Origin: a virus
DNA length: 64,000 nucleotides
Direction: 5' to 3' (one strand)
IMG/VR virus record: IMGVR_UViG_3300034072_000373
Coordinates: 12,030-76,029 of that record
Of the stretch, positions 1,244 to 60,741 are shown piece by piece; within the stretch, counting starts at the first letter, position 1, and every line of letters starts with the position of its first letter. The notes beneath the pieces were generated by a model that was not told the origin of the DNA, did no database searches, and saw nothing but the letters and a program-made list of their open reading frames with translations. Both the position numbers and the translations under genes were made by a program.

Positions 1244-3533
1244 ACCAGAATCATCAGGGTTTCGACCAACAGAGAGTCAATCTCAGAAGCTGACAGAGTG
1301 GGAGAATGAACCCTCTCTGTTGGACCTGAAGAGTGATTTCGATGTGTCGAAAGATACTCACAATAAGCAGATGGTGAAGATTGACCACTGGAACGATCTT
1401 ATGTTCGTTCGTGGTAGGGCTAAACCTAATGCACCAAAGAATCGCTCTCAGGTGCAGCCAAAGCTCATTCGTCGTCAGGCTGAATGGCGTTACTCTGCAC
1501 TGACTGAACCATTCCTTGGTTCAAATAAGCTGTTCAAGGTTTCTCCAGTTACATGGGAAGACGAAGAGGCAGCAAAGCAGAATGAGCTACTTCTGAACCA
1601 TCAGTTCAGAGTAAAGCTGAATCGTGTCAAATTCATTGACGATTTCGTCCGTTCTACGGTCGATGAAGGGACTGCCATTCTTCGGTATGGTTGGCTCCGT
1701 AATGTCACGACTGTTAAGGAAACAGTTCCTACCTTCCAGCATTTTGCAATGACTACGGAAGAAGAGGCACAGGCTCTACAGCAGGCACTCCAACTTCGCG
1801 AAGAGAATCCCAGAGGATATGAAGATCAGGTTCCTCCTGAACTGAAAGCTGCTGTCGATTATTTTGATCAGACTCAGCAGCCTACTGTTGCTGTCCAGAA
1901 TGGTGTGCAGGAAATTGATGTAGAGAAGATTCTACAGAATGAGCCTACTGTTGAAGTGCTCAATCCTAAGAATGTGTATCTTGATCCCACCTGCAATGGG
2001 GACATGAATAAAGCACTGTTTACGGTTGTTGCTTTTGAAACCAACAAGGCTGAATTGCTGAAGAATCCAGAAACCTACAAGAATCTTGATAAGGTCAACT
2101 GGTCTACCAACACTCCAATTTCGGATGCTGAATATGAAACCCAGACACCAAATGTCTTCGAGTTCAAAGACGACTTGCGTAAGAAAGTCGTGGCGTATGA
2201 ATATTGGGGATTCTACGACATTCACGGTAACGGTGAACTTGTTCCCATTGTCGCTACGTGGATTGGTGACACCATCATTCGACTGGAAGAAAGTCCCTTC
2301 TCAAATAAGAAGCTTCCTTTCATCGTGGTTCCCTACCTCCCCGTTAAGCGTGAGCTATACGGTGAACCAGATGCCGAACTCCTAGAAGATAACCAGAAGA
2401 TTCAGGGTGCCCTAACTCGCGGTATCATTGATCTCTTGGGTCGATCTGCCAATAGCCAGATTGGTTTGGCTAAGGGTCTATTGGACCCTATGAATCGCAA
2501 TCGGTATGATCGTGGTGAGGATTATGAATTTAATCCCAGCATGAATCCTACTTCCCATATTATTGAGCATAAATACCCTGAACTACCTCAGTCAGCTATG
2601 ATTATGCTGAACTCTCAGAACCAAGAAGCTGAAGCACTGACTGGTGTGAAGAGCTTTGGTGGAGGTATGTCAGGTGAAGCTTATGGTGAAGTTGCTGCCG
2701 GTATTCGTGGTGTTCTGGATGCTGCTTCCAAGCGGGAAATGGCGATTCTCCGTAGGCTTGCTAAAGGCGTTACTGAATTGGGTCAGGCAATCATTTCGAT
2801 GAATGCCGATTTCCTGTCTGAACAGGAAGTGATTCGTGTAACCAATACTCAGTTTGCTGTAATCAAACGTGAAGAGATTCAGGGTCAGTTTGATCTTGAA
2901 GTGGATATCTCCACGGCAGAAGTCGATAATCAGAAGTCTCAAGATTTGAGCTTCATGCTTCAGACCATTGGTAACTCAATGGACTTTGGTATGACCAAGA
3001 TCATTCTGTCTGAAATTGCTGAACTGAAGCGTATGCCTGCCTTGGCTTATACGATTAAGACATTTGAGCCACAGCCTTCACCTGCACAACAGCGTCTAGA
3101 AGAACTGGCTATTCAGAAGGCTGAACTGGAGAATGAAGAACTCCAGTCACAGATTGAACTGAATAGGGCTAAAGCTCGTCAGGCAGAAGCTCAGGCTGAT
3201 AAGACTGATCTTGATTATGTTGAGCAGGAAACTGGCACAACTCATGCCAGAAACATGCAGAAGCAGAAAGCTCAGAGCGAAGGTAATCAGAATCTACAGG
3301 TTACTAAGGCTCTCACTACTCCAAAGAAGGAAGGTGAAGCCAAGCCTGACATTGATGCTGCTGTTGGTTTCAACGAACTAAGTAAGCGTCTAAGTAACGA
3401 TGGTATCCCTGATCGTGTTGACAACAGTTTTGAAAGGGACCAACAAGCAGAAAGTGATCCAAGGTTTAGCATCTATAGTAGGTTCTATCAGCCAAGCCTT
3501 GATCCAGCGTCTAACCCAAATATGAGTATTTAA
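1236..3533 (+). CDS. Portal protein (N4 gp59-like)
   Basis: [37 protein letters not shown] motifs typical of N4-like portals; GTG at 1236 after GGAGG RBS. Confidence 0.9.
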
Positions 3534-7005: not shown

Positions 7006-8565
7006 ATGAGTTGTGGTGCTGAAGTAACAGCCAAGAGATTGTATGATGCCCTCAAAGCAGACGCATCATTTGATTTCCCTGAACTGGATTGGGATGATCC
7101 AGATTTGCAATTTCCCCCTACAACGGGGGAATTGTATGAGCCAATTGAGAAGCTGAAGGATGAAGACCTAACCACTGGACTAATCAACGGTGATGGCACA
7201 TTCGATAAGCTGATGGCTTCAATCAAACATCACCTTCGTGGTGAATTTGAAGATGGCCGAATCACTGGTCGGGAATTCTCAGAAGCATATACCCAGAGCA
7301 CAGTTGCTGCTCTGGGAACTGCTGTTCAGTATCTTCTGGGTAAAGATCAGGCTAACTGGCAGGCAATCCTTCTACAGCTTCAGGCTAGAGAAGCTGCTAT
7401 TGCTGCAATCAATGCTAAGGTCACACTACGGACTTCAATGCTTCAGTATGAAGTTGTCCGTATGCAGGCTGAAATGTCAGTTATTGATTATGCCAATAAG
7501 AAGATTCAGTTGGCTATCGCTGATGAAGATTACTGCCTGAAGATTCAGCAAGGTGAACTGAATGAGATTGAAAAATCAACTCGTCAGTATAATCTTGATA
7601 CGATTCTCCCACTCCAGTCTCAGATGCTGACTGAACAGATTGCTGGGCAGGTTCTGGATAATACCGGACAGGGTATTCAGAATGATACTGCAACATATAA
7701 TCTAGATGAGATTCTGCCTAAGCAGGCTGCACAGCTTACAGTTCAGACTGATAATCTGACCAAGCAAGGTTTGGGCATCGTGGCTCAGACTGCAAATGTT
7801 GAATCTGACACTGCCATTAAGGGTTATCAGCTTTCGGATATGCTTCCTGCTGAACTGGCTCAGACAGAGGCTCAGACTACGAATCTTGGTAAGCAGGGTA
7901 TCATTCTGGATGATGAGCATGATCTCAATCTGCTGCGTGCTACAGGTCTTGGTATTGATAATAATACAAAGACTTACAATCTGAACACCATGCTTCCTGC
8001 ACAGATGGCAGGGGTTGTGGCACAGACTGATATGGTCACTGCACAGATCGTCAATGAAAGTAAGCGTGGTCTGGTTTTGGATCAGAATGTCCTTCAGCTT
8101 CAGGCTGAGATTCTGGGCATTGGTCTGGATAACGATACCAAGACTTACAATCTGGCCAACATTCTGCCTAAGAATCTTGAGCTACTGACGGCACAGGTTG
8201 CAGGTGTTGAAGCAGATACTGACGGTAAGATTTATAATGTTACCTATGTTCTGCCTAAGCAGCTTGAACTGGTTAGTGAACAGGTTGAGTCAACCAGAGC
8301 GCAAACCATGGATACCAGAACTGACGGCACCACTGTCATTACTGGTCTGCTTGGTAAACAGAAGGCACTCTATGAACAGCAGATCACCAGCTATCAGCGT
8401 GATAGTGAAGTGAAGGCTGCAAAGATGTTCATTGATGCTTGGATCACACAGAAGACCATTGATGAAGGTCTGCTCCCACCAGAGGGCTTCGAGAATGACA
8501 ATCTCGATTTGATTCTGGCGAAGCTGATCTCTAACAACGGTTTCGGAACAATGATTGCGGATTAA
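7006..8565 (+). CDS. Virion structural protein (N4 gp54-like) with internal repeats
   Basis: GDGTFDKLM N-terminal and GLLGKQKALY..QITSYQRD C-terminal motifs; six YNL..LP repeats in between. Confidence 0.75.
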   Translation: MSCGAEVTAKRLYDALKADASFDFPELDWDDPDLQFPPTTGELYEPIEKLKDEDLTTGLINGDGTFDKLMASIKHHLRGEFEDGRITGREFSEAYTQSTVAALGTAVQYLLGKDQANWQAILLQLQAREAAIAAINAKVTLRTSMLQYEVVRMQAEMSVIDYANKKIQLAIADEDYCLKIQQGELNEIEKSTRQYNLDTILPLQSQMLTEQIAGQVLDNTGQGIQNDTATYNLDEILPKQAAQLTVQTDNLTKQGLGIVAQTANVESDTAIKGYQLSDMLPAELAQTEAQTTNLGKQGIILDDEHDLNLLRATGLGIDNNTKTYNLNTMLPAQMAGVVAQTDMVTAQIVNESKRGLVLDQNVLQLQAEILGIGLDNDTKTYNLANILPKNLELLTAQVAGVEADTDGKIYNVTYVLPKQLELVSEQVESTRAQTMDTRTDGTTVITGLLGKQKALYEQQITSYQRDSEVKAAKMFIDAWITQKTIDEGLLPPEGFENDNLDLILAKLISNNGFGTMIAD

Positions 8566-11768: not shown

Positions 11769-13844
11769 ATGGCTGCACTAACTTGGAGAAACGTTGCTGC
11801 CCCTGATTTCTCAGGAGTTCAGGGGGGCATCAGCAATGCTGGTGAATTCTTTAATCGTGCTTTCTCCGGTGGTCAGAAGACTGTGGAGAATATTCAGAAT
11901 ATCCGTGAGGATAATGCTGTAAAGGAAGTCTTGGGCAGAGCCTTGGCTTCCAATGATCCTGCTGCAATTCAGGCAATGGCTGCTGAAGCTGCTCAGAATC
12001 CTAATTTCACTCTTCGTGGTTTGGATACTCTGAACCGTCAGGTGGATACCCTTCAGCGTAGGAATCTTACTGAAGAACAGATTCTTGGTGCCAGACAGGG
12101 TAGAGAACAGGGAGCTACTCTGTTTAATCGTGGTGAGCAGGAATATAGCGCAAGAGAAGCTGCCAGAGGTGAAATCCTGAAACTATATGGTTCAGGTATG
12201 ACACCTGATAAGATTGCTCAAGCTGCTGCATCCAATCCAATTCTGGCTGCATTGCCTACCAAGGATTTGATGGGAATTATTGATGACTCCTACAATCGTA
12301 GGGATCGCAATCTAAATTATGATATTCGCTCAACTGAATTTGCAAACAGTCAGGCAGATCGTAATGACGCATTTGTGGTAGCAGACGCTCTATCCACCAT
12401 TGACCAATCTTCATTGACTGATGAAGAAAGATTCTCCGCACTTGAGAGAATGCGGGGTAATCTCACCCCTAGACAATATACACTTGCCCGTAATCGTCTT
12501 ATGGGTGGTGGAACAGGTGGTGCTGGCGGAGGTGAATTTGCTGCTCCTGCATCTGGCTCATTTTCTGCTGGTGGTTCCAATTATGCTTTTGGAGCGCCAC
12601 AGAAAGCATATGCAGATGTCTTCTCCAGTGCTGGTGTCAGTAACAATGTTGTCGCTGGTCTACTAGGTAATGCCCACGTTGAGGGTGGTTGGACTGGTAA
12701 AGAAGGTGACGGTGGTGCTGCTGGTGGTATTGTCCAGTGGAGGGATGGAAGACGGGATGCTTTCATTCAGCGTAATGGTGTTGACCCAACAAAAGCATCA
12801 CCTGAAGTTCAGGCAAGACATGTGATGTGGGAACTTTCTACTCCTGAAGGTAGAAAGGTTGCTGGTATTACGGAACAGCAAGCCAATGCCATTTTGAATG
12901 CTAAGTCACCTGAAGAAGCTGCTGAATATATTGACCGTTTTTATGAGCGTTCATCTGGTCAGCATCGTCAACAGCGTATTGCTGCTGCGGCTGCATATGG
13001 TCAATTGACTCGTCCCGGTGATCCTGTTGCTAATGGGCTTCAGGGAATTGCAAACAGTGTGGACACTGATCGTGCAAGAGCACAACAGGGCGGTTCAGTT
13101 GGTGCCAGAATTCTCCGTGAGAATGCTGGTTCAAAGAAGGATCGTGCTGATGTTATCAGTGATGTGATGACTTCTCTTGGAGCCTCTGACAGAGGAACAG
13201 TTGAGAATATCTTCAATGATATGCGTAACCGTTTCCTTGCCAATGGTTGGGAAGCTCCAAATGATGCAATCATTGGTGCCGCTCTAAAGACTGGTTCAAC
13301 CTATGATCGTAGACTTGGTGATCGTATCTGGGATTGGACAGGTAATCTTTTTGGAGCCACGGATGCTGTATCAGGCGGACTTCAGGTAGATAGAGATAAT
13401 CTCTATAATCGTCTGAAGGATATTGTGCAGAGTCCTCAAGCTTCAAATGTGGCTGTTGTGGAAGCTCAGAGAAATGCTGGGGAACAAGCTGCATCTGTTG
13501 CAGATGCACAGTATCAGCAGGCAAGAGCACAACGTGAATATGCAGAGAATGAGGTTAGATCAGGCCGTAGACCTAACATCAATCTCAAACCATATTATGA
13601 TCGTGAGAACCAAGCACTAGCAACTTCACAGGCTGCAAATGCTGCTGTTAGGAATTCAGGTTTGACTAATCCCGGTGTTCAGCCTGTTGGTTCCTCAACA
13701 GGTAAACCTACTCAGGGAACACCTAAGTCAACTGATGACTTTGTGCGTAATGCTGCTGATCGACGTAGGCAAACTGCACCGCCTCCAAGAGCATCCAATG
13801 GATGGCAATTGCTCAAAGATACGGTAACTGGTATCTTCGACTAA
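11769..13844 (+). CDS. Ejection protein (N4 gp51-like) with a phage tail lysozyme-like domain
   Basis: LTWRNVAAPDF start; AGLLGNAHVE..GGIVQW..FYER..R motifs; Cys-free. Confidence 0.75.
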   Translation: MAALTWRNVAAPDFSGVQGGISNAGEFFNRAFSGGQKTVENIQNIREDNAVKEVLGRALASNDPAAIQAMAAEAAQNPNFTLRGLDTLNRQVDTLQRRNLTEEQILGARQGREQGATLFNRGEQEYSAREAARGEILKLYGSGMTPDKIAQAAASNPILAALPTKDLMGIIDDSYNRRDRNLNYDIRSTEFANSQADRNDAFVVADALSTIDQSSLTDEERFSALERMRGNLTPRQYTLARNRLMGGGTGGAGGGEFAAPASGSFSAGGSNYAFGAPQKAYADVFSSAGVSNNVVAGLLGNAHVEGGWTGKEGDGGAAGGIVQWRDGRRDAFIQRNGVDPTKASPEVQARHVMWELSTPEGRKVAGITEQQANAILNAKSPEEAAEYIDRFYERSSGQHRQQRIAAAAAYGQLTRPGDPVANGLQGIANSVDTDRARAQQGGSVGARILRENAGSKKDRADVISDVMTSLGASDRGTVENIFNDMRNRFLANGWEAPNDAIIGAALKTGSTYDRRLGDRIWDWTGNLFGATDAVSGGLQVDRDNLYNRLKDIVQSPQASNVAVVEAQRNAGEQAASVADAQYQQARAQREYAENEVRSGRRPNINLKPYYDRENQALATSQAANAAVRNSGLTNPGVQPVGSSTGKPTQGTPKSTDDFVRNAADRRRQTAPPPRASNGWQLLKDTVTGIFD

Positions 13845-13850
13845 ATAAGA

Positions 13851-13876
13851 AAGCCCTCTTAACGGAGGGCTTTTTT
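13851..13876 (+). terminator. Rho-independent terminator
   Basis: AAGCCCTC-TTAACG-GAGGGCTT-TTTT. Confidence 0.85.
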
Positions 13877-13914
13877 ATGCTATGTGAGGTCAAAATCACC
13901 TAAAGGTATTGTGT

Positions 13915-16900
13915 ATGGCAAACCCCTCTTCCACCATTATGAATGAGTATCTGTCTAAGGCTAAGCAAACAGGTGTTGCTAATGCCACTGCACAGAAGAA
14001 GCAGACTATGGCTGCTCAAGCATCTGTAAATGATGATGCTCTTTACCGTATTGCTTCTGCTCAAAGTAATGGCACTGGCAATTCCATGGAAGGTTACGAA
14101 CGTGACCTTAGAACCATGGGAACCTTTGATCTAATCGGTAAGTATGGTTCGGGGATTGTTGGTGATCTGTCACGGCTAGAAAATGCTAGAGAGCGTTATC
14201 GTGGTGATGAGTCATCCCAGCGTGGTTTTGGTGATGTAGTTGGGGATGCTGCTATTGGTGTGCCCACTGCATTTGCATCTGGTATCCATTCAATTGCAAA
14301 TTTGATCGAAGCCCCATTTGCTCCAGAGACTGCTGCAAGAGATGCGTTGGCAAATGCTAAGTTTGGTGAATGGGCTAACTCATTCCAGAGTGATGCACTC
14401 AATCAGCGTAGACGTGCTGCTGGTGCCGATCTCCAAAATACTCAAGCAGATAATAAGGCTGCACAGGAAAGAGGTGAGATTAACTCGCTAGAGCGTATGG
14501 GCAGAGATGCCTATGATGCTGCTGCACGTTATCTGGATGATGGTGCGCTTACATCAGACGTTGTTGCTCAGGGTGTTGGTTCACTCTTTATTGGTGGTCC
14601 AATGATTAAGGGCTTCAGTAAGGTTGGTCAGGGTATCCTGAAAGCTGCTGGCCGTGGTGAATCTGTCCTAGCTGGTAGGGTTGTTAATGCTGCTGCTGGT
14701 TCACTAGGTGTAGGCACACAGGAAGCTGGTGGTGCTTACGATCAGACTGTTCAGGCTGCTATGGAAAGAATGGCAGATAGAACTGATCTCACTGAAGAAC
14801 AGAAGCTGGAACTAGCTAATAAGGCTGGTCTGGAAGCTGCTGCTATTCAGGGAACTGTTGCTGCTGGGATTGGTCTAATTCCCGGCATGACTAACCTTGA
14901 ACGTGCTCCACTTGCTCTTCGTGGTTCAGTCCGCAATTCAGTCAAAGCTATTCTGGGTGAGACTCTTGAAGAAGCTACTCAATCAACTTCAGGTCAGTTG
15001 GCTCAGAATCGTGCTATCCGTGATGTGGTTGATCCAAATCAGGATATGCTTGAAGGTGTGGGTGAACAGACTGCTCTCGGTGCAATTGGTGGCTTTGGTT
15101 CTGCTGGTATGGTTCAGGCTCCAAGCCTTGCAGCTAATACTGCAATGGCTCCTGTCCGTGCTATCATGGCTAAGGGTGCTGAAATCAATTCACGTAGGGA
15201 AGCTGCACAGGTTCAGGAATTCTCCAATAATGTAGAAACTGTTCGTGCTGCTGGTCCTGTGAATATGGATGCAGTTAACACTGCCATTGATAACTCTGAT
15301 CTTGATCCAGAGATTAAGAACACTGCTCGTGCTCAGATTGATGGGATGATGCAGCGTGCTTCATACACCCCTGAACAAACACGCAATTATTCTCCAGAAC
15401 TTCAATCATATCTGGAAGATTCAATTGATAAGTTTGATGCTCTCGACACTGCTATGGCAATTGTGGAAGATTCTGACTTCACAAATGCACAGCGTCTGGA
15501 AGCAGGTGCTTATATCGCACAAACTGTTCTTCAGAATAATTCTCAGATCAAAGCTGATCTAGATGAAGCAATTGCTGCTATTCATGAGGATGACCCTGAA
15601 TTTGATAAGCTCATTGAATACAATGATCTTATGGATAAGATGGGTAGCCATCCTATTGTTCAGCGCATGGTTCAGCAGTTTAGGGAACAGGTTGCGGCAG
15701 TCACCCCTGAACAGGTGAATGCTGAAGCTATGGCAACTCCTGAAGGTAAGCAGACTGCTAGTGCAGTAGCTACTGCTGTGGCTTCTGATCCTGAAGCTGT
15801 AAGCCCAGAGGTTATCTCAACCATTTTGGAACATGATGAATCTGATCCTGAATTCTCACCAGTGAATCGTAAGATTCTGGAAGGTGCTCAGGCATATCAT
15901 GATATGAAGGAAACTCTGCGTAAGAATGCAGAGCAGATTGCCATTCAGAATATCAATGCTGTCACTGACAACATGATTAAGTCACGCTTTGAGGATAACC
16001 CACAGGAAGGTTCTCCTTTGGCTCTATCACTGCGTGACCATTACACCCGTTTCTATAATGCACTGATGGCCAATGATGATGTCTCTGCAAAGGATTACCT
16101 AGATAATCTAGGTTTCTTTGCTGCACACATGCAGAACAAGTTGGCCACTGTGAACTCAGCTATTGAGGACAATGCTTATAGTGAAAAGCTGGCTAAGCCT
16201 TATATGGCAGTGGTTCCAGCCAGAACTGCTGCACAGCGTAAGTGGGTTCCATCCAATCTCAAGATTTGGATGAATGGCAGAGCAAAGGACAGTGTGCGTC
16301 TGGCTAAGCGTATCCAGCTAGAAGCTCAGGCAATCACCAATACCTATAACAACCTTGTGGAGCAGAATCCTGAATTCAATCTTCCTACGATTGATGTAGG
16401 CACACTGAACCCTCTCTTTGATGGTTCAATTGATGAAGTCGTAAATCGGTATAAGGGTCAAAAGAATGTTCAAACGTCTACTTCTGACAGTAGCGGAAAC
16501 GCTAATCCTCAGCGGACTCAACAGTCTGAAGGAACGTCAGTCACGCAAAGCAGCCGAGAAGGCACTGAAGAAAGCGGAAGCGAAACTTCAGGAACAGAAT
16601 CCCGTGGTTCCAGAGTAACTCCTGAACAGGCACGGGGTATCTCTGACAGAGCACTACAGTCACGAATCACCAGTCTCGAATCAATGATCGAAGACAATAA
16701 GGCGACTGTGCAAGACAGAGCTACCCTTGCCGTTCTCCGTAAGGAGAATGCCAATCGTAATGCTGAAGCAATGCAGCGTGAACGAGAGGAACAGGAAGCT
16801 GAAGCTAAGGCTAGAGCGACTGAATCAAATCAGGATCAAAAGCCTAAAACTCCAGAAGTCACTGATTCTTCAGAAGATAATTCTGAGGAAAGCACTGATG

Positions 16901-52567: not shown

Positions 52568-53734
52568 CTACTGTATTGATGATGATTTTACGTGAACCTT
52601 GGTTCCAAATGGAACCGTGGCAGTGGGATTGTCCAGAACCACCCAGATCAGGGGGACTTCGTAAGACAGTGGTTGCATTTCAGGAACGTGCATATCTGAG
52701 AAGATAATGACGCCTGTGGGTTTGGTGTCCTCAATCCTTGCATGGACTGGAACCAGAGACGTTCCGCCTCCACCGTGGATTTCATATTCTGAAATATCGG
52801 TGTTTCGATCAATCACCTCAGTGTGGGTGATACGAGTATCGAATTGACTGAAGGTCATCTTGTCAGGCTTATATTGCTCTTTGAGATATACAAGCTCAGA
52901 GAGAATACGCTGGATTTGGCTTCGAGAGATTGAGCCAGACACATCAATGTAAACATCAATGTGGGCCAGCTTTCCCTTATCCTTGGCTCGATGGGGAAGA
53001 TACATATTGGTGTATCGTCTATTGGGACGAGTCCACTTGTATTTGATATGACAGAGTTCCGTGAGGAACTTCTGAATATGCCTTTCCCATGGGACAGCAG
53101 GATTGAGATAGGCATTCACTGTCTCGGTTACTTCACCGGGAAGTGTGCCTGCCTCTCCAGCTTGTTCAGCAGCATGGATAGAACGGATGATATTATTTAC
53201 CGTCTTCTGTGGTGTGGGACATTCTTGCATGTCCCCACCATCTTCAGCATTGCCCCATGAACCGGGAGCAAGCCCTCCAAGCAGTGGAACAATCTCATAG
53301 ATTTCCTCTTCAGTTTTGCCGAAGAGACTCTGATCTTTCCAACAATTCTCAAACCCTTTGAATGAGTAACCATCCCGTTCAAGATTGTTGTTGATGACGA
53401 TATCGCAGGCGACATTCCATTGATATGGATCACGATCACCACGACGCTGCATGTGCATTCTGGCTGGGTGCCAGACTTCGTGCATCAGAACAGTCGGCCT
53501 ACACTCAACGTCAAGTTCTAGGAACCACTGAGGATTCCAAGCATAGAACTCACCATTGGTGCAGGCCGTCTGGATACCAGTCGTCCAAAAGAAATTCATG
53601 CCACAGAGCATTGAGCCAAAGAATGCTGAATTCTTGCCTAAATAGATTCTTGATCGGGTGATATCCAGAAGACGATTTAGCTCACGCACATCTAGGCTTT
53701 GAAAGTCTTCAAGTGGTTGGACTGGTTGTTCCAT
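52568..53734 (-). CDS. Metallopeptidase + vWA domain protein (N4 gp25-like)
   Basis: TACTNG, HEVWH (HExxH), WNVACD..IN, IDVSGSI (MIDAS), GGGGT, FSD. Confidence 0.88.
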   Translation of the reverse strand: MEQPVQPLEDFQSLDVRELNRLLDITRSRIYLGKNSAFFGSMLCGMNFFWTTGIQTACTNGEFYAWNPQWFLELDVECRPTVLMHEVWHPARMHMQRRGDRDPYQWNVACDIVINNNLERDGYSFKGFENCWKDQSLFGKTEEEIYEIVPLLGGLAPGSWGNAEDGGDMQECPTPQKTVNNIIRSIHAAEQAGEAGTLPGEVTETVNAYLNPAVPWERHIQKFLTELCHIKYKWTRPNRRYTNMYLPHRAKDKGKLAHIDVYIDVSGSISRSQIQRILSELVYLKEQYKPDKMTFSQFDTRITHTEVIDRNTDISEYEIHGGGGTSLVPVHARIEDTKPTGVIIFSDMHVPEMQPLSYEVPLIWVVLDNPTATVPFGTKVHVKSSSIQ

Positions 53735-54770
53735 TGAGATACCTCGCAAGGTTGATGAAAGCCTTCTTGAATGCTGGATGTTCTTCCAGCGCAGGCTGAC
53801 GAATCTTCACACCCCGATAGAACAGGATGCGGAAATCGAGAGACATACGGTCGATATATTTTGCCATGGTTCCGAAATTCTTTTCGTCCACATTGCTCAT
53901 GAGCATACCGACAGTAGCCCAATTTATGTCGTTGGAATGTGAGATTTCAAGGGTTTCTGCTTCACGCAGAATACGGGCAAGGGTTGGAACCTTGTGAGAT
54001 ACCTTGGTGTATTGCACGAAAGATGCTGCCACGCCTGAAGTGATAGTCCCACCGAACAGGGTAGCATCCAGATCAGTAAGCTCTGGCTTGTTCTTCAGGA
54101 ACCTGTTGATGAATGACCATGTGCGAGGACAGCAGAATGTCCTATCCTGATGCTCAGGACGGAAATCATGCAGTTCCTCTCCCTTGGTTCGAGCCAGATA
54201 TGTGACAAGGCGATTGTCATAATTCTGAGCCAAAGCAACATCTTCCAGCCATTCCTGCCAGTCGATACGTAGGTTGATGTGAATCACACGAGACTGCATT
54301 GCAGTGCTGAGATCATTCACAATTGCGTTTGAGGTGGTAAGATTACCAGCAGCAGTGATGACACAGCGTTCATGCAGAGGATGCTGACCAACAAAGTGGT
54401 CCAGAACTGGCTTATATGCAGCAGCCTGAACATCCCGCTCACATGAGTTGAACTCATCCAAGAAGAGCATAAAGCCCTCCTTACCATCAGGAATGGGAGT
54501 ATCCTGCATGGGGAAGATTTCATCGAATGGAGCAAAGCGAGCTTTACCATCTTCAGTGAATCGGGGAAGACCGCTGAAGTCTTCTGGAATTGATGTGGAC
54601 ATTCGGTGATCGACCATGTGAAGGCCATAGTCATCACATACATTGTGCATGATGGCTGACTTGCCCATACCGGGATCACTGGTGACGAATGGAACCAGAC
54701 CTACCTCGATACAGTCTGATACCAGAGTTTTCATCTGCCGTGGTGTGGCAGAAAACATATCTATGCTCAT
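53709..54770 (-). CDS. MoxR-like AAA+ ATPase (N4 gp24-like)
   Basis: SDPGMGKS, LFLDEFN, AAGN, CPRTW; paired with the vWA gene. Confidence 0.88.
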   Translation of the reverse strand: MSIDMFSATPRQMKTLVSDCIEVGLVPFVTSDPGMGKSAIMHNVCDDYGLHMVDHRMSTSIPEDFSGLPRFTEDGKARFAPFDEIFPMQDTPIPDGKEGFMLFLDEFNSCERDVQAAAYKPVLDHFVGQHPLHERCVITAAGNLTTSNAIVNDLSTAMQSRVIHINLRIDWQEWLEDVALAQNYDNRLVTYLARTKGEELHDFRPEHQDRTFCCPRTWSFINRFLKNKPELTDLDATLFGGTITSGVAASFVQYTKVSHKVPTLARILREAETLEISHSNDINWATVGMLMSNVDEKNFGTMAKYIDRMSLDFRILFYRGVKIRQPALEEHPAFKKAFINLARYLNGTTSPTT

Positions 54771-54786
54771 GGATTTCCTTACAAAT

Positions 54787-54819
54787 AAAAAAGCCCCCTA
54801 GATTTCTCTAGAGGGCTTT
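54787..54819 (-). terminator. Rho-independent terminator
   Basis: AAAGCCCTCTAGA-GAAA-TCTAGGGGGCTTT plus T run on the - strand. Confidence 0.85.
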
Positions 54820-54823
54820 AATT

Positions 54824-55249
54824 TCAGAACGTTCGGATTTCGCCGGAAAGCTCAATAGTAGTTTCCCTATTAGGCTTAGTGCGAATCCTGCCGATAGATA
54901 CGACCTTATTTGGATCATATCCGTTAGCCTTGAGGCGGGAACGAATAGCTCGTGCAGATTCCTTCATGACATAACCCACATGGGTCCAATCATATCCGGT
55001 CTCTATTTCACCAAATTGGACTTTGGGAATTGCTGCATAGACAGCAATTGCATTATCCTTGTCGTATGGGTTTCCGGGTTCAGGAACAAGTTGAACCATG
55101 TTCCCTATATTCTTCTTCTGCCACTTGTCGAAGTCTTTCCGATGGTGAGCACCAACAGCAGAGACTTTTATGAACGCAATTTCATTTGCGTATCTTTCCG
55201 ACCAAGTGCCGAGTTCGAGTTTACGGATACCCCACAGATCACCAGACAT
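54824..55249 (-). CDS. HIRAN-like domain ORF, probably expressed as a -1 frameshift extension of the upstream gene
   Basis: LVPEPGNPYDKDNAIAVY...HVGYV motif; no SD before ATG 55249; frame open and protein-like for 42 codons upstream. Confidence 0.7.
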   Translation of the reverse strand: MSGDLWGIRKLELGTWSERYANEIAFIKVSAVGAHHRKDFDKWQKKNIGNMVQLVPEPGNPYDKDNAIAVYAAIPKVQFGEIETGYDWTHVGYVMKESARAIRSRLKANGYDPNKVVSIGRIRTKPNRETTIELSGEIRTF

Positions 55250-55308
55250 TACATCTGTAATCAGTGCATTATCGTCCGGGATTTCTCCCGTCTCTGGGTC
55301 AAATGATT

Positions 55309-55375
55309 CCCCTGAATCATAGAGTTGAAAGATACTTTCCTTCTTCCCTTTTGGTTCAGGGGTTACTTGAAAGGG
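55309..55375 (-). promoter_or_regulatory. Putative -1 programmed ribosomal frameshift signal
   Basis: C CCT TTC heptamer (55375-55369), 6-nt spacer, 8-bp stem CCCCTGAA/TTCAGGGG. Confidence 0.7.
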
Positions 55376-55983
55376 TTCTTGAAACCGCCATCCCCCATGA
55401 GCATCATCAGCATCATGGGATTGGAGAACAGACCTCCGGCATTACCACCGCTCATCATGAGCAGAGGCAGCATGGAGGACATATCCTTGTCACCACTCAT
55501 CAGCATGAGAGGCAGGAGGCTATTCATGTCCATGGTTCCAGAGTTACCTTCACCACCGAACATCGAACCGAATGAACGAACGACAGTCAGACCGTCCTTA
55601 ACGCCCAGCATGGAAACACGCTTGGGACGGAAACGGCTGATATGGCCCTGAACATTGATCGTCTGAATCGAAGCCTTTGCAGCTTCTTCGTCGGAAACCG
55701 ACTTTTTGTCGCCGTCTTCCAACAGGAAACCATATGCCCTGCCATCGGATACAAGAATGTCCCCACGCTTCACTTCGGTAGCAGGCGTCAGCATTGCAAA
55801 TGCTGGGATTTCCATCGAGAAGAAATCCAATGGATTCTGGTCCAGAACATCATCCTTGCCCAGAGTCACCAGACCAGCATTGGTCTTGATGCCTGAAGTG
55901 CCGGATGCAAGATCGTAGCTCACATTGTCGATGGGACGAAACATCGTCTGCATCGCCTTATTCATCGTGCTTTTCATATCCAT
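55363..55983 (-). CDS. Hypothetical protein with Met-rich repeated C-terminus
   Basis: AAGGA RBS; LLPLMLMSG / MLPLLMMSG / NPMMLMMLMG repeats. Confidence 0.75.
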   Translation of the reverse strand: MDMKSTMNKAMQTMFRPIDNVSYDLASGTSGIKTNAGLVTLGKDDVLDQNPLDFFSMEIPAFAMLTPATEVKRGDILVSDGRAYGFLLEDGDKKSVSDEEAAKASIQTINVQGHISRFRPKRVSMLGVKDGLTVVRSFGSMFGGEGNSGTMDMNSLLPLMLMSGDKDMSSMLPLLMMSGGNAGGLFSNPMMLMMLMGDGGFKNPFK

Positions 55984-56068
55984 TTTCAGTCTTCCTTCTT
56001 TGTAGGGTTCGGTCGTGGTCTTATGCTATCACCGTTCTAGCGCTCAAAATCAGATACCACTTCAGTCT

Positions 56069-56445
56069 ATCAGCGCCTAACCACACCAATAGAATACAAT
56101 CCGCATTTCCTATCGTTACCGAATAGGAAGCCGTAGCGGAGGTTAGCTGATGAAATTTTAGAGGCCACATCCCCCGATGTGATTAAGCATTAAGCACCTC
56201 TGCCCTGATCCAAGTGAGACACACCACATAACGCCGGGGAGAATTTCGGCAGATGGTAGTCATCTTCTTGGTTCGGGAAACTAAGTGGGTATCATCGTGG
56301 ATCATGACTCCATCACATCAGCCTACCCAAGCTATCCCGCTGCTATATCCGACTACATGGCCCATTGGGATTGAGCGTCATTAAACCATGCAGAAGCATT
56401 CCATTCTCAGAGAGCTACTCCGATTCCAAAGCCCGTTGCAACAGG
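56069..56445 (-). ncRNA. Cluster of putative structured RNA modules 3' of the hammerhead
   Basis: No plausible ORF; abutting closed stems at 56353-56393, 56275-56338, 56210-56271, 56160-56201 and 56069-56151. Confidence 0.55.
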
Positions 56446-56462
56446 TCTATGTATTTAGGAAT

Positions 56463-56510
56463 GTATGTGACACCTAAGTGTTTCGGCTCATTAAGCCTCA
56501 TCAGACATAC
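56463..56510 (-). ncRNA. Type I hammerhead ribozyme
   Basis: GTATGT-CTGATGA-GGCT(TAATG)AGCC-GAAA-CAC(TTAG)GTG-TC^ACATAC: complete core, three stems, GUC cleavage site. Confidence 0.9.
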
Positions 56511-56515
56511 TTGTA

Positions 56516-56848
56516 TTGGCACTTCTGTTGTCAGGCAGTTCCCGCCCCTGTGCTTTTACGCAGCCATGCGGTAGTCGGAGACTACATCGTTGTCGTTGAC
56601 ATTTAAGTTTCAACTGTCAGCTTAGGGCTGCCAATCCGATAGCGTTCTGAATCAATCCACATAGTCGATCCTAGTTCACCCCCATCAACTACATTGGTTC
56701 GAAGTGTTCATACCACGTATTCGGGCGTCTCCGGGTTTCCAACCCTAGTATGGCGGATACCATACCGAACCAATGCAGATGGTGGAGGTGACGGGTGCTG
56801 CCCCCGTGTCCTCATGCTTCAATCATCATTCCGAATTACTATCATCGC
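56516..56848 (-). ncRNA. ssrA: Circularly permuted (two-piece) tmRNA, alphaproteobacterial type
   Basis: Acceptor piece ...GACACGGG-GGCAGCA-CCCGT-CACCTCC-A-CCA (ends 56780), intervening hairpin, then GGGGGTGAACTAGGATCGAC (starts 56683); G3.U70; tag VNDNDVVSDYRMAA* at 56600-56556; outer ends approximate. Confidence 0.92.
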
Positions 56849-56898
56849 TTTAAGGTAGTCCATCCTCTGGAACGTGTCCAGAGGAACGATAACGAGAA

Positions 56899-57147
56899 CT
56901 ACCCTAACCAAATATTCCTGCCGATGATGTAGCCACACATAATGAGGGCTATAATAATGATTCCATTTAGGAACCAATTGAAGATACGACCAATCCATGT
57001 TGGGATTTCGAGTCGCTTGATCTTCACTGAAGCGAATGTGTCATAGAGCCATGCCAGTCCAGCAAAGATGCTGACCATCGCTACAACAGCCATAATCATG
57101 GCACATATACCAGTGAGAATGAGGCCAAGGCCAATCAGATATTCCAT
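56899..57147 (-). CDS. Small membrane protein inside the RNA island
   Basis: GGAAGG RBS; two long hydrophobic segments. Confidence 0.65.
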   Translation of the reverse strand: MEYLIGLGLILTGICAMIMAVVAMVSIFAGLAWLYDTFASVKIKRLEIPTWIGRIFNWFLNGIIIIALIMCGYIIGRNIWLG

Positions 57148-57708
57148 GGTTCTTCCTTCCATAATTTATGAGGACCGTGAACAAGCTCTCTGGCTCTGGT
57201 ATTGCTTACAGCATTGTCACATTCCAACGGTGGCCTACCGTGGTTATTCACGGCCCGCATAAAATATGCTTTGGTGCCTATCAGGGCGTTAGTCCTAATA
57301 AATTAGGTAACACTCCTGATAGGACACGCTCTAAAACCCGCTGCGTAGGCGAAGTGTTAACCCGCATAGGGATTACTCCCATTAGTGCTTTGTTTCGTCT
57401 TCATGTTACTACCGTTGGGTTGGCGAATTTAGCGGATGACAGTCTGTCTCGCCACTAGACAGACCTCCTGCTCAGATTGGCGGGAATGCTAAACCGATAG
57501 TCCTCATTAAGTCTGGCTCACAGACACCAAAATCTTTGAATGAATAGCGCCCAGATGAGTAGCGTTATCTCTCATCCTATATATCTTGCAGGATATACTA
57601 ATCTCCTGCTGCAACAGGAAATGGGCACGACAGCATTGCATGGTATCCTCCCTGATTACGGGAACCATGGAAAGGATTGACCATCCTTCAATGCTGTAAT
57701 TTAATTTT

Positions 57709-57807
57709 GAACCAGACGCTCTCGCTAATTGATTAGAATCAATTATTTGAATTGAGCTACTCCGACTGATGCCGGAGACAGGAATTACACCTGTAACCTT
57801 CTGGTTC
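57709..57807 (-). ncRNA. Permuted tRNA-like element with closed acceptor stem (Y RNA/YrlA-like topology)
   Basis: GAACCAGA-AGGTT-ACAGG(TGTAATT)CCTGT-CTCCGGC(ATCA)GTCGGAG-TA-GCTC(..)GAGC-G-TCTGGTTC. Confidence 0.75.
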
Positions 57808-57981
57808 CGGTTTTCCCTCATCTAACAGGTCATGACTCCGTTAGGTCGTCACAAATGAGATAAAACCAATTCTAATAAGGCAGGTAGGCAGGCTACAGGC
57901 CAATTAAGTATCGCTCTACTGAAAGGTTCTTTGCGATACACCCTTTACAGATTCAGTTCTAACCGCCTTTGAATCTCGTAG

Positions 57982-58015
57982 AAAAGCCCACCAGCCATGA
58001 AGCGACTAGTGGGCT
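57982..58015 (-). terminator. Terminator-like hairpin inside the RNA island
   Basis: AGCCCACTAGTCG...TGGCTGGTGGGCT-TTT; short U tract. Confidence 0.45.
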
Positions 58016-58337
58016 AACTCAGAATCTCAACAGGAAGATTGTGCGGCTATAAGCCATCCTGTTAACCGGCTCTGATACCGGATCGGGTAACGGGGGTTTC
58101 CATTTCCATCCCATTGGCTCTTACGAACCAAACGAAACAAATATTTCTACCTAAGTTACATTGGGCTTCTCACCCCTTTGCTCCGTTCTCGGAGCATCTG
58201 AAATGAGTCCGGGGACTCGAAGACTCAGATGCTTCAATTGGTCGAGGACACCAATTCGCTTGACGGACCAGCCCGGTCAGACTTTGGGCCTGTCCTAGTT
58301 CACTCATTGTGAGCGAACCCAAAAAACATACGGCTGA

Positions 58338-58880
58338 TTACGCAGTAACGTTGATCGTAACGGAATCAGTCATACCGGAATCAAGCACGGTAATTTCAAC
58401 CGTGGTGGTTCCAATCTTCTTTGGCACGATTGCACCAGTCTTATCGACTTCAGCAATAAGTGAATCTGCACTGACCAGCTTCACATCCTTCTTCGTGGCT
58501 CCAGCAGGGGAGACAGTGAAGACAGGGTGGAATGCACCAGTTGCAAGGGAGATATCGTATGAGGTGGCACCAAATTCAACACCAGTGCTACGCACATAGG
58601 TTTCATCAATGATAGTCACCTTCGCCATATCGGTGATATTATCAGGCCACTGAAGATCACTGGTGGCAACTGAACCATCGACATTGGATACCTTATAGAG
58701 AATATCCCGGACATGCTGATAAAGCACATGGCTCAGATCAGCATGATAACCGAACTCTTCATCAGTGGGACCATGAGAGAACTTACCGATGATTTCAGAA
58801 CCACCGGGAGCAATAGCACCGTCAACCTGAACAGTTGCAGTGCGTGTATCGAAATTGAAGGCTACCTGAAAATCTGCCAT
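58338..58880 (-). CDS. Ig-like (Big_2) capsid decoration protein (N4 gp17-like position)
   Basis: TVSPAGATKKDV...S....AEVD..G.I.....GTTTVEIT..D; start MADFQ after AAGGA; follows RNAP2. Confidence 0.78.
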   Translation of the reverse strand: MADFQVAFNFDTRTATVQVDGAIAPGGSEIIGKFSHGPTDEEFGYHADLSHVLYQHVRDILYKVSNVDGSVATSDLQWPDNITDMAKVTIIDETYVRSTGVEFGATSYDISLATGAFHPVFTVSPAGATKKDVKLVSADSLIAEVDKTGAIVPKKIGTTTVEITVLDSGMTDSVTINVTA

Positions 58881-58893
58881 CTTGACTATCCTT

Positions 58894-58930
58894 AAAAAAA
58901 TACGGCCAACAGGGGAATACCCTGTTGGCC
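58894..58930 (-). terminator. Terminator after RNAP2
   Basis: GGCCAACAGGG-TATTC-CCCTGTTGGCC-GTA-TTTTTTT. Confidence 0.85.
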
Positions 58931-58945
58931 ACATATATAGAATAA

Positions 58946-60172
58946 TTAACTTAAAGCATACTCTGCATTCAGAATCTCATCAGCCATGGTGGGATCAAGC
59001 TTTTCAGTCTTGATTTCCCGACCAGTGATCTGGCTGAGAATGTAATCGAGCATCTTGCTCTTGCCGATGAGGTGAAGCTGCATATTGTATTGACGACGAA
59101 TCTCGTTACCATAATTGGGATGGACACGGAAACAGTCATGCACAGCGATCACCTTGAATGGCTTCTTAGCGAAGCTGTTAAGCAACTCCCTAATGACCGC
59201 AACATCCACCAGATGGATATTATCGGCATTCAGATGATCAACGATCCGGGCAGAGAGATACCCGGATTGCTCGTAATGGTTCCAGAGGGTAGCAACGAGC
59301 TTGTCGTTATAAGTGAGGCTACGCTCTACGGTCTGCCCCTTAACGGGTAGTTCCAGCAGTCCCTTAACGAACAGCAGTCGAGCAGGATCATAGTCACAAC
59401 GACGAGTGATTTCACGAACCACCATGCCGTCAATGCTATGAACCATGTTGGGTCCAAGTGAACGGCCAGTTTCAGTCGGTGCATTCTCCTTGAAGAACAC
59501 ATCGAAAGGCTCATTCAAGAAGTGAACCTTCTCAGTGAAAGTGTTCATGACCTTGCACTTCACATGGAAGTTATCAGGCAGAACCCAATCATTGGAGAGA
59601 GCTTCAGGATTCCAGAAGTTCACCATAGCTTCGTTCAAGTCCCATGCTGCGGGGGCAACATACTGCATAATCTCATAGAAGAGATCAAGCAGCGGACCTT
59701 CACCGAAGATTTCCTTGGGTTGAGCCTGTGAGCCGTAGAGAGCAGTCATGATTGCTTTCTTGACATCATCACGCTTGATCTTGGACTTTTCACCCAAGAC
59801 ACTAAGCATGAGATTGTAGATGACAGTATAGCCATCCATACGTTGTGCTACAGCTTTGTCGCTGAAGTCGAGGATGACATTGCAGAGCTTTGCAGCAGAA
59901 CGATCACCAGTGAGACAGGCGAGCAATTGCATACCTGAAGCAGTAGCGTCCAAGCTGATCATATAACCGCTTGGACGCTTTGCGAGGTAGTCTTCATATG
60001 CTTTGATACCAGCATAGAAGAGTGCAGGCTCATCAGCTTCTTGAACCAGATTGTGAAGATTGTTCTTATTGTCATTGAACCAATCGAGACGCTCATTCCA
60101 AGTCAGTTTGTCCAGACCGAAATTGTTAGCAATGTCGATCATGAGATACTGAGAAGCGGTGAATTCCTGCAT
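58946..60172 (-). CDS. RNA polymerase II subunit 2 (N4 gp16-like)
   Basis: SLDATASGMQ (A), RDDVKKAIMTALYGS (B), PNMVHSIDG and VHDCF (C). Confidence 0.92.
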   Translation of the reverse strand: MQEFTASQYLMIDIANNFGLDKLTWNERLDWFNDNKNNLHNLVQEADEPALFYAGIKAYEDYLAKRPSGYMISLDATASGMQLLACLTGDRSAAKLCNVILDFSDKAVAQRMDGYTVIYNLMLSVLGEKSKIKRDDVKKAIMTALYGSQAQPKEIFGEGPLLDLFYEIMQYVAPAAWDLNEAMVNFWNPEALSNDWVLPDNFHVKCKVMNTFTEKVHFLNEPFDVFFKENAPTETGRSLGPNMVHSIDGMVVREITRRCDYDPARLLFVKGLLELPVKGQTVERSLTYNDKLVATLWNHYEQSGYLSARIVDHLNADNIHLVDVAVIRELLNSFAKKPFKVIAVHDCFRVHPNYGNEIRRQYNMQLHLIGKSKMLDYILSQITGREIKTEKLDPTMADEILNAEYALS

Positions 60173-60182
60173 TTTGGTTCCC

Positions 60183-60371
60183 TTACTTTATGAGTTCTCG
60201 AAGCTTCAGGATTACATCCTGTGGCTGGCCAAGCTTTACGACAGAACGAGGCACACCATTTGCATTGGTGTTCACTGCATACAGTGTGTTGTCACGTTCC
60301 AGATGGAGTTCCTCAAACTTTGCAAGCTTGAGCACCTTGGTTCCATCTTCTCTAAATGTGATATCCGTCAT
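60183..60371 (-). CDS. Hypothetical protein
   Basis: GGAG RBS, small ORF. Confidence 0.6.
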   Translation of the reverse strand: MTDITFREDGTKVLKLAKFEELHLERDNTLYAVNTNANGVPRSVVKLGQPQDVILKLRELIK

Positions 60372-60741
60372 AATAATTCTCCGTCCAATGCACGTTCTTT
60401 ATTCCAAAGGCCGTTATGGCCCGGAAACACCCATTACAGGGTTTGGCTAACATAGGTAAGCCTGAACGATTTACTCTTGCAATGAACATCGACATGCCTT
60501 CGACAGATTGTCGGGCATTTACTATGGCAGCTATTTCAGCGTGAATCTTCAGAGCATGAACATTCTTCTGAAACTGTTTGGCTAGAGGATGGGTCTTGTG
60601 ACTGTTCAAGCCAATCGAAATGAGTCTGTTGCGATCATAAATGACCGCTGCCATCTTGGACAGACCCTCAATCGGATTGGCTTGTGCAGCTTTGATTGCT
60701 GTGAGCAGCTTAGGCGAGATTACCACTTTTCGTGGTTCCAT
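60352..60741 (-). CDS. Zn-dependent cytidine/dCMP deaminase-fold protein
   Basis: IHAEIAAI and AKPCNGC motifs. Confidence 0.8.
   Translation of the reverse strand: MEPRKVVISPKLLTAIKAAQANPIEGLSKMAAVIYDRNRLISIGLNSHKTHPLAKQFQKNVHALKIHAEIAAIVNARQSVEGMSMFIARVNRSGLPMLAKPCNGCFRAITAFGIKNVHWTENYYDGYHI

Follow-up and report, generated by a model that had tools for sequence, protein, structure and literature searches.

A probable stable-RNA gene island with a two-piece tmRNA, a hammerhead ribozyme and two candidate RNA families in an N4-like phage

The IMG/VR virus record IMGVR_UViG_3300034072_000373 comprises 76,029 bp, and the stretch of 64,000 nucleotides analysed here, its bases 12030-76029, is called the window. 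The minus-strand span 55984-58337 of this window is probably a stable-RNA gene island, that is, a conserved genomic slot that is filled with exchangeable RNA cassettes and whose transcripts would be processed into separate RNAs. It holds a two-piece transfer-messenger RNA (tmRNA), a type I hammerhead ribozyme with a structured RNA downstream of it, and a circularly permuted tRNA-like element. An initial annotation of the span had proposed a minus-strand island with a tmRNA, a hammerhead and a tRNA mimic in an N4-like phage. The three elements are supported by the results given below, and the affiliation of the phage, which is uncultivated, is borne out by an open reading frame (ORF) for a 3457-aa virion RNA polymerase (vRNAP) and by an RNAP2 gene, both of which mark it as N4-like (Schitoviridae). 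The elements on which the argument is built are listed here, with z as the folding energy relative to shuffled sequences.

56514-56884, minus strand: two-piece (permuted) tmRNA
56463-56510, minus strand: type I hammerhead ribozyme
56278-56468, minus strand: hammerhead-linked RNA of about 190 nt, starting directly 3' to the cut, with a core domain at 56278-56386
57709-57807, minus strand: circularly permuted tRNA-like element (z = -6.5)
57630-57876, minus strand: three-module cassette of 247 nt, absent from a ~95% identical wastewater relative

As relatives, 80 N4-like loci were selected by RNAP2 alignment, and several of them carry RNA genes in a slot 1-3 kb downstream of RNAP2. In the window this slot lies between an Ig-like decoration gene on one side and a gene for a 206-aa protein (55363-55983) on the other. 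The closest IMG/VR relative, L005 (60% RNAP2 identity), has a 2.3-kb ORF-poor island at 12314-14634 that is flanked by the orthologues of both genes (decoration protein 40% identity, 206-aa protein 52%), and as orthologues flank both sides, the two islands are positional homologues. In sequence and structure they share only the hammerhead unit and the permuted tRNA-like element. The 206-aa gene adjoins the island also in L354, where the slot measures about 0.84 kb and contains one tRNA of 114 nt. Further contents of the slot are as follows.

L010: seven tRNAs
L033 and L034: four tRNAs each
L038: tRNA-like gene, tmRNA and two tRNAs
L009: tmRNA
L005: tRNA-Arg

The tmRNA matches RF04321 with 90.8 bits (gathering threshold 47) and RF01849 with 76.9 bits (gathering threshold 50), and beyond it only a tRNA-Arg 8 kb away is found at Rfam gathering thresholds. 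Its acceptor piece comes first and ends with CCA at 56780, an intervening segment of 96 nt follows (56684-56779), and the coding piece starts with G1 at 56683. The acceptor stem is formed by GGGGGUG (56683-56677) and CACCUCC (56790-56784), with the G3.U70 pair included, and is followed by A and the CCA. The tag frame (56600-56556) has a valine resume codon (GUC) and encodes VNDNDVVSDYRMAA before the stop, so that the tag ends with MAA; for the tmRNA of L038, ARAGORN gives the tag VNDNDESVPVLRLAA. Homologous tmRNAs sit in the same slot in L038 and L009, and the 3' boundary is formed by the hammerhead here, by an intrinsic terminator in L009 and by an abutting tRNA in L038. Among phage genomes about 2.3% carry a tmRNA, and the two-piece form has been reported 53 times (PMC9004378; also PMC4131195). 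The element resembles two-piece tmRNAs such as that of the OM43 phage Melnitz (PMC9004378) in its permuted order, encoded CCA, G3.U70 pair and alphaproteobacterial NDN...AA-type tag, whereas the Val (GUC) resume codon, the MAA end of the tag and a hammerhead directly at the 3' end distinguish it from the known forms. Judged from its sequence, the element at 56514-56884 is a complete two-piece tmRNA of the alphaproteobacterial type.

The phage encodes neither SmpB nor RtcB, and as it has no SmpB of its own, that of the host would be needed. In bacterial genomes no exact match to a 28-mer of the tmRNA was found, a degenerate 20-mer matched Alphaproteobacteria alone, with only conserved segments in common, and the comparison with bacterial tmRNAs gave no match beyond conserved segments of the tRNA-like domain. 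When the DNA of this island and of its counterparts in L005 and L009 was searched against cultured phages, the only match was to the tRNA-like domain of a tmRNA in one Erythrobacter phage. The wastewater run X7 contains a contig with a depth of up to 416 that matches both tmRNA halves (56573-56863) and skips 56691-56773 in the intervening segment. This contig probably stems from an abundant bacterial two-piece tmRNA related to that of the phage, and it is a possible hint at the host. Just upstream of the L009 island a protein is encoded (7986-8522) whose C-terminus looks to us like that of a Ros/MucR-type regulator. Ros/MucR is a family typical of Alphaproteobacteria and would fit the alphaproteobacterial type of the tmRNA.

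The hammerhead consists of an open stem I of 6 bp, CUGAUGA, a stem II of 5 bp, GAAA, a stem III hairpin of 4-5 bp, and GUC followed by A. Its core elements CUGAUGA, GAAA and GUC plus A can be read directly between 56504 and 56468 and agree with the required CUGANGA/GAAA/NUH pattern, and the cut is predicted between 56469 and 56468. A hammerhead descriptor yielded 5 instances in 1.5 Mb of N4-like loci versus 0 in reversed and about 0.2 in shuffled sequence, and when the window is compared with L005 and L009, stems I and II are seen to have changed on both sides, which is the pattern of covariation. An unannotated type I hammerhead motif is also present in the Xanthomonas phage RiverRider (L232, MG983743.2; 17809-17858), 220 nt past the last coding sequence and 350 nt before the first tRNA, in a 2.7-kb gene-free stretch with seven tRNAs. 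To judge from these loci, hammerheads mark the boundaries of RNA islands repeatedly in this virus family. In the N4-like contig L048 a hammerhead motif with a 12-bp stem III lies at 2231-2294 on the plus strand, in the early region, some 8 kb upstream from RNAP2 and at a great distance from any tRNA. The canonical core, the three helices and the intergenic phage context are shared with the type I hammerheads of phages and prophages (Perreault et al. 2011, PMC3088659; PMC6155905); unlike the known phage hammerheads, the one described here scores below the gathering thresholds, has a fixed downstream RNA partner in three phages and abuts a tmRNA in the window. Hammerhead cleavage leaves a 5'-OH end, and the roles of bacterial and phage hammerheads are an open question (PMC6155905).

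Downstream of the cut site, the window, L005 (12766-13013) and L009 (8588-8830) can be aligned from the hammerhead to about 200 nt further on. The core domain of 110 nt has 22 consensus pairs with 93.9% of the cells paired, and 11 of the pairs changed on both sides; none of 500 shuffles was as good, and slid controls gave at most 2 double-sided changes. The invariant motif of this core is GGC(A/U)GAUGUGAU, followed by a 13-nt hairpin with a covarying stem and then by ACGAUGA. No Rfam family is common to the three versions, and the covariance model R2 retrieved only these three copies from the 1.5 Mb of N4-like loci. A 19-base pattern was found only in L005 and L009 among IMG/VR viral contigs and gave 17 matches in 241 million metagenome records, all of them chance, as were those of a looser pattern scan; a DNA search of cultured phages returned no hammerhead-linked RNA. 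A reading of GAUGUGAU...ACGAUGA as a k-turn gave no clean fit by eye, and a tmRNA-style tag frame was dismissed as well, the short frames past AUGA being not conserved when inspected in the same way.

The position of the hammerhead and the RNA block downstream of it differs between the phages. It comes after the tmRNA in the window, after a tRNA and 360 nt in L005, and directly after a protein gene and 1.1 kb upstream of the tmRNA in L009. As the block moves as a unit among differing neighbours, the constant partner of the hammerhead is the downstream RNA. Further downstream, the lineage-specific tail of the island (55984-56277) could belong to the hammerhead-linked RNA as its 3' part, or it could serve the 206-aa gene, whose start is at 55983, as a leader. 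A terminator scan listed none between 56468 and this start codon, and the relative X4 shows at least 2 differences within 55984-56534.

The tRNA-like element, read 5' to 3' from 57807 to 57709, starts with an 8-nt anticodon-type 3' strand, a 5-nt variable loop and a T arm (5 bp, 7-nt loop). It continues with a 7-bp acceptor stem closed by AUCA, the dinucleotide UA and a D stem GCUC/GAGC with a 32-nt D loop, and ends with G and the complement of the first strand, which is the 5' anticodon-type strand. The spacing of a tRNA is thereby kept in a chain that is opened at the anticodon stem and closed at the acceptor stem, with neither an anticodon loop nor free acceptor ends. The counterpart in L005 (13177-13252), in which the acceptor stem is capped by a UACG tetraloop, aligns column by column: 24 pairs have 91.7% of the cells paired and 7 of them changed on both sides, against at most 2 in slid controls. 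All four helices are retained between phages with 60% RNAP2 identity. The covariance model R1 found only these two elements in the 1.5 Mb, the weaker matches being tandem-tRNA junctions. Between 55800 and 58500 RF00005 gave no tRNA match at E <= 10, and ARAGORN gave none. The element is like the tRNA-like domain of YrlA (RF02553; Chen et al. 2014, PMC4201824) in its T arm, loop-closed acceptor-type stem and D arm and in ending at the anticodon-stem position, and its 7-bp acceptor stem resembles the Mycobacterium smegmatis YrlA form that is cleaved by RNase P (PMC4201824). Membership in the YrlA family was rejected: the scores are 19.3 bits here and 22.1 bits in L005 versus a gathering threshold of 69, tandem tRNAs often reach scores of that size, which are present also in 13 of 14 control genomes, no match to a Ro60/TROVE gene was found in the 76-kb phage record, and the GNCGAA motif of YrlA was not seen by eye in the flanks of the element.

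The cassette to which the tRNA-like element belongs consists of exactly three of the modules that had been delimited in the initial annotation, and its deletion boundaries coincide with module ends. An 806-nt contig of X4 contains the cassette-less joint 57629/57877, and a similar joint (57628/57880) occurs in X7, which comes from a different study. As L005 has the tRNA-like element, the absence looks like a loss, and the cassette would be dispensable in at least one lineage. One of the two other modules has a nested hairpin with the inner loop AGUCAUGA, for which L009 (9112-9182) has analogous nested stems with the same inner loop (z = -3.1; the folds were compared separately). A 10-mer that contains AGUCAUGA occurs 3 times in 3 Mb, every time on the sense strand within RNA islands. 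For the other module, which is Y-shaped, no homologue was found.

The coding content of the span was assessed with a codon log-odds score per codon from a model for which 22 long genes in the window had served as the training set. Real genes score about 0.41 and the flanking genes 0.43-0.46, and the 95th percentile of 222 spurious nested ORFs is -0.01. The ORF for 82 aa, which sits among the RNA genes, scores 0.10, has the Shine-Dalgarno-like GGAAGGAAGA upstream and encodes two predicted membrane helices; its protein matched no Pfam or PHROG family. As the ~95% identical relative has 14 substitutions in this ORF, 7 synonymous and 7 conservative, and no indel, we judge that it is a real gene for a small membrane protein. 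All other ORFs of at least 40 aa in the island score at most 0.06, near the spurious range, and among them a 104-aa ORF that overlaps the tRNA-like element scores -0.21 and has no family match. Many 1-2-nt indels are found in the same relative at 57482-57519 and 58100-58139, which coding sequence would not tolerate. The span 55984-58337 is non-coding apart from the 82-aa gene, in line with the single ORF initially reported, which both the codon scores and the variant comparison bore out.

The other features of the island and of its upstream border are given below.

58946-60172, minus strand: RNAP2 gene, 408 aa, phrog_2051 (E = 7e-160)
58900-58934, minus strand (feature span 58882-58934): strong intrinsic terminator, 15-bp stem and U7 tract
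58236-58323 and 58190-58233, minus strand: hairpins 3' of the decoration gene (z = -3.3 and -4.8)
57982-58014, minus strand: terminator-like hairpin of 11-13 bp followed by UUUUCU (fold 57975-58045 z = -3.0; RNALfold z = -4.7)
57809-57867, minus strand: nested hairpin module (z = -2.2)
57630-57697, minus strand: Y-shaped module with a 9-bp closing stem (z = -3.9, RNALfold z = -4.9), 3' end at the cassette boundary
57549-57626, minus strand: four-way junction (z = -4.3) within the fast-evolving, indel-rich segment 57332-57629
57274-57327, minus strand: long near-perfect hairpin of about 23 bp (z = -6.9, RNALfold z = -7.4)
56899-57147, minus strand: the 82-aa protein gene
55984-56277, minus strand: lineage-specific island tail with a GUAA-capped hairpin near 56116 (fold z -0.6 to -1.9, no better than shuffles)

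The RNAP2 of the window is at most 58% identical to those of cultured Schitoviridae and at most 62% to other proteins in a search of 5.8 billion proteins; a second contig with an identical RNAP2 exists, and RNAP2 alone as query against viral contigs returned no relatives. The ATG at 58934 listed for the decoration ORF falls within the terminator hairpin directly after RNAP2. The true start is at 58880, which gives a 180-aa protein to which the L005 orthologue aligns from residue 1. Two genes downstream of the island, a 141-aa protein (54824-55249, minus strand) has a HIRAN domain (Pfam E = 6e-8). In the relatives, some of the tRNA genes are unusual. L010 has an ARAGORN tRNA (12708-12780) with the anticodon UUA, which would read the UAA stop, and those at L033:12348-12431 and L034:12367-12450 have the 4-base anticodon AGAA, so that suppressor or frameshift tRNAs are possible. 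The 114-nt tRNA match of L354 (5349-5462) implies a long insertion, and the same locus has a weak group I intron match at 2426-3205 (22.7 bits, E = 0.015) that overlaps a 202-aa ORF. Two sub-threshold tRNA-like genes of L005 (14282-14351 and 13631-13700; 25.2 and 23.7 bits) could neither of them decode, one having a GGAA tetraloop for an anticodon loop and the other a 10-bp anticodon arm with a 5-nt loop.

The islands are headed by a U-rich leader, GUUUUYUUGGKUU, right after the upstream stop codon, at 58316-58327 on the minus strand of the window, where this is the only match in island context, at 12317-12330 in L005 and at 8529-8545 in L009. The next bases are CGCUC; in L005 they overlap the 5' end of the tRNA-Arg, and in the window and in L009 they open a hairpin. 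The leader may be a promoter, a processing signal or a relic of a tRNA 5' end. A motif common to L005 and L009 upstream of the decoration gene, a candidate promoter, is absent from the window. The hairpins at 58190-58323, for which no homologue was found, are possibly the 3' untranslated region of the decoration gene. The hairpin at 57982-58014, at which one relative's contig diverges (at 58011), was not listed by the consensus terminator scan; with its U tract it suggests at least two transcription units, and this argues against the single co-transcribed operon of the initial annotation, which it would split.

Variants were compared as assembled contigs of public runs, which hold the same phage (subsurface, soil) and the ~95% identical wastewater relative (two studies). 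The wastewater "RNA-Seq" runs are probably DNA, and the compost run X17, an RNA library, covers only 55865-56051, 56517-56674 and 58153-58303. Relative to the wastewater phage, the tmRNA and the hammerhead with its downstream RNA diverge by about 0.5% and the adjoining coding genes by 0.8-1.8%. The divergence rises to 5.6% in the 82-aa ORF, to about 6% with indels at 57877-58375 and to about 12% with indels at 57332-57629, where the X4 relative has 31 substitutions and 6 gaps over 298 nt. In the long hairpin at 57274-57327, the X4 variant changes a G.U to an A-U pair at 57287 and has one loop base inserted; two further changes have pairing partners that lie outside the contigs. The upstream half thus changes about 10 times faster than the half with the tmRNA and the hammerhead, and it appears to be either weakly constrained or replaced by recombination. 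This uneven divergence argues against a function of all modules.

Several results weigh against the interpretation as an island of stable RNA genes. ARAGORN did not call a tmRNA in the window, though it called the L038 homologue, and the Rfam matches of the hammerhead (56464-56534) stay below the gathering thresholds, with 27.5 of 56.3 bits for RF03152 and 26.8 of 48.5 bits for RF00008. The canonical elbow nucleotides are missing in both the T loop and the D loop of the tRNA-like element, the T loop UGUAAUU being non-canonical and the D loop lacking GG, and given the gap in a close relative, the element may be a dispensable relic. The covariation is that of 2-3 sequences, and the structures tested came from those same alignments. 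The low divergence of the tmRNA/hammerhead half could be due to recent recombination instead of selection. The folding energy, too, gives no distinction: in sliding 120-nt windows the mean z is -1.46 in the island versus -1.48 in the flanking coding sequence (p = 0.52, Mann-Whitney), and among random 2354-nt windows of the 64 kb, 45% match the island's RNALfold coverage at z <= -4 and 14% at z <= -6.

These energy tests bear mainly on the model of the initial annotation, in which about 15 individually functional RNAs are transcribed as one operon, cut by the ribozyme and RNase P, and act as decoys or scaffolds that protect translation. We think that this model is quite unlikely. Within the boundaries as initially drawn, the modules at 57709-57807, 57274-57327, 58190-58233, 57549-57626, 57630-57697 and 58236-58323 are well folded (z from -3.3 to -6.9, as listed), three adjoining modules form a cassette with matching deletion boundaries, and the tmRNA, the tRNA mimic and the hammerhead are all present. 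Only about half of the abutting folds have support of some kind, and 4 of the 13 tested upstream modules fold near the level of shuffled sequence (57382-57530 z = 0.0; 57328-57381 +1.1; 57868-57975 -0.35; 58060-58189 -1.4). Because the boundaries had been chosen to close stems, the unbiased tests described above were run, and in these the energy of the island was no better than that of flanks or random windows. There is also no strand asymmetry, the plus strand of the island having a mean z of -1.40 in 120-nt windows. GNRA-capped hairpins of at least 4 bp, which had been taken as a signal, are not enriched (3 observed versus 2.35 expected, p = 0.42), and 2 GUAA-capped hairpins were observed versus 0.48 expected (p = 0.08). 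Sense-strand coding sequence at 53500-60500 (minus) likewise beats dinucleotide shuffles (mean z -1.48 versus -0.75 antisense), and extreme values are reached over the terminator (58900-59019, z = -7.9) and within RNAP2 (59920-60039, z = -6.2). As the known tmRNA scores poorly in the same tests, they have little power in either direction, and the thermodynamic and tetraloop arguments fail to carry the island claim. Reading folds by eye calls for caution, since the hairpin-rich folds that are seen in this way in a phage genome do not exceed the background. Of the modules that had not been matched to a family, the hammerhead-linked RNA and the AGUCAUGA-loop hairpin are conserved, whereas 57332-57629, like 58100-58139, is indel-rich and fast-evolving. 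Comparison of homologues revealed covariation in the hammerhead, its linked RNA and the tRNA-like element, with homologues for only 3-4 non-tmRNA modules. The U-tract hairpin argues against a single transcript, and the decoy or scaffold role is pure inference.

A decayed tRNA/tmRNA island, in which the tmRNA and perhaps the hammerhead are functional and the rest consists of relics and neutral spacer, is an unlikely explanation as well, though several observations fit it. In the relatives the slot is occupied by genuine tRNA arrays or by tRNA-like genes with sub-threshold scores, the permuted topology is what would remain after a deletion spanning two tandem copies of one tRNA, tandem-tRNA junctions match the same covariance models, the upstream half is 6-12% divergent with indels versus about 0.5% in the other half, and the cassette is dispensable in one relative. 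However, the tRNA-like element keeps its four helices through 7 double-sided changes, the hammerhead-linked RNA is kept with 11 compensatory pairs, and 1 kb of retained junk would be improbable in a genome that is otherwise packed with genes. It is rather doubtful, too, that the RNA downstream of the hammerhead is a long, structured leader at the 5' end of an mRNA that encodes the 206-aa protein and the products of the genes that follow, with the 5'-OH affecting stability or translation. The 5'-OH is an established hammerhead product (PMC6155905), no terminator lies between 56468 and 55983, and the 206-aa gene is conserved beside the island in L005 and L354. Against this stand L009, where about 1.1 kb of further RNA and then the tmRNA separate the hammerhead unit from the next gene, and L005, where about 1.6 kb of tRNA-like RNA follows; because of this intervening RNA, the conserved 190 nt are not beside a conserved coding gene there. 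That the span hides several small protein genes, as is typical of N4-like early regions, is highly improbable. Related phages have annotated hypothetical genes of 50-100 aa between the decoration and ATPase genes, and one such gene, that for the 82-aa protein, is present. The other ORFs of at least 40 aa score as spurious, though, the 104-aa ORF on top of the tRNA-like element has no family match, and the close relative has scattered 1-2-nt indels.

For the stable-RNA gene island, which we consider the probable explanation, the following model of processing can be proposed. The minus strand would be transcribed together with the neighbouring genes, probably in at least two units that are split at 57982-58014. 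The 5' end of the tmRNA coding piece, G1, would be made by host RNase P, and the acceptor piece would be trimmed to its CCA by nucleases of the host. The two-piece tmRNA, charged with alanine through G3.U70 and assisted by host SmpB, would release ribosomes that have stalled, with VNDNDVVSDYRMAA as the added tag. Self-cleavage of the hammerhead at 56469/56468 would define the 3' end of the tmRNA precursor with a 2',3'-cyclic phosphate, and the same cut would free the conserved, structured downstream RNA, at least about 190 nt long, whose 5' end would carry a hydroxyl group (5'-OH). By analogy to mycobacterial YrlA, RNase P may open the closed acceptor stem of the permuted tRNA-like element. 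The remaining stretches would be fast-evolving spacers and hairpins without evidence of function.

Stable-RNA clusters of this kind are familiar from phages, as the tRNA cluster of T4 also carries extra stable RNAs. Phage tRNA clusters differ from the island described here, which has no canonical tRNA, the only tRNA of the phage lying 8 kb away, and which holds instead the tmRNA, the permuted tRNA-like element, the newly described conserved RNA and the 82-aa protein gene. With the tRNA island of RiverRider (MG983743.2, 17.6-20.3 kb) it shares a fixed slot with co-oriented small RNA genes, free of protein genes there, and a presumed processing by RNase P. The initial comparison with GOLLD and ROOL is apt in that these, too, are phage non-coding RNAs near translation-related RNA genes, but it was not upheld beyond this, since the island has no Rfam match to them or to other large RNAs at E <= 10 and, instead of a single large conserved fold, is a mosaic of small cassettes that were gained, lost and reshuffled among relatives. 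Novelty appears to be confined to two small candidate families, namely the RNA linked to the hammerhead and the permuted tRNA-like element. A bolder view would be that the hammerhead and the ~190-nt RNA linked to it represent a novel, mobile class of non-coding RNA in phages, with functional 5'-OH and 2',3'-cyclic-phosphate ends (for example in stability, RtcB-type ligation or ribosome rescue), that the tRNA-like element is a second new class, a Y-RNA-like tRNA mimic without a phage Ro60, and that both, together with the tmRNA, act as an RNA-only toolkit on host translation or RNA repair; this we consider improbable.

Under the preferred interpretation, a hammerhead that has a fixed partner RNA in three phages, neighbours a tmRNA in one of them and, in another phage, stands at the head of a tRNA island points to a testable role for this ribozyme, namely in defining the RNA ends of phage stable-RNA transcripts. 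The island would add two small candidate RNA families, each with covariation, and the RNA islands of phages would evolve through the exchange of cassettes in a fixed genomic slot.

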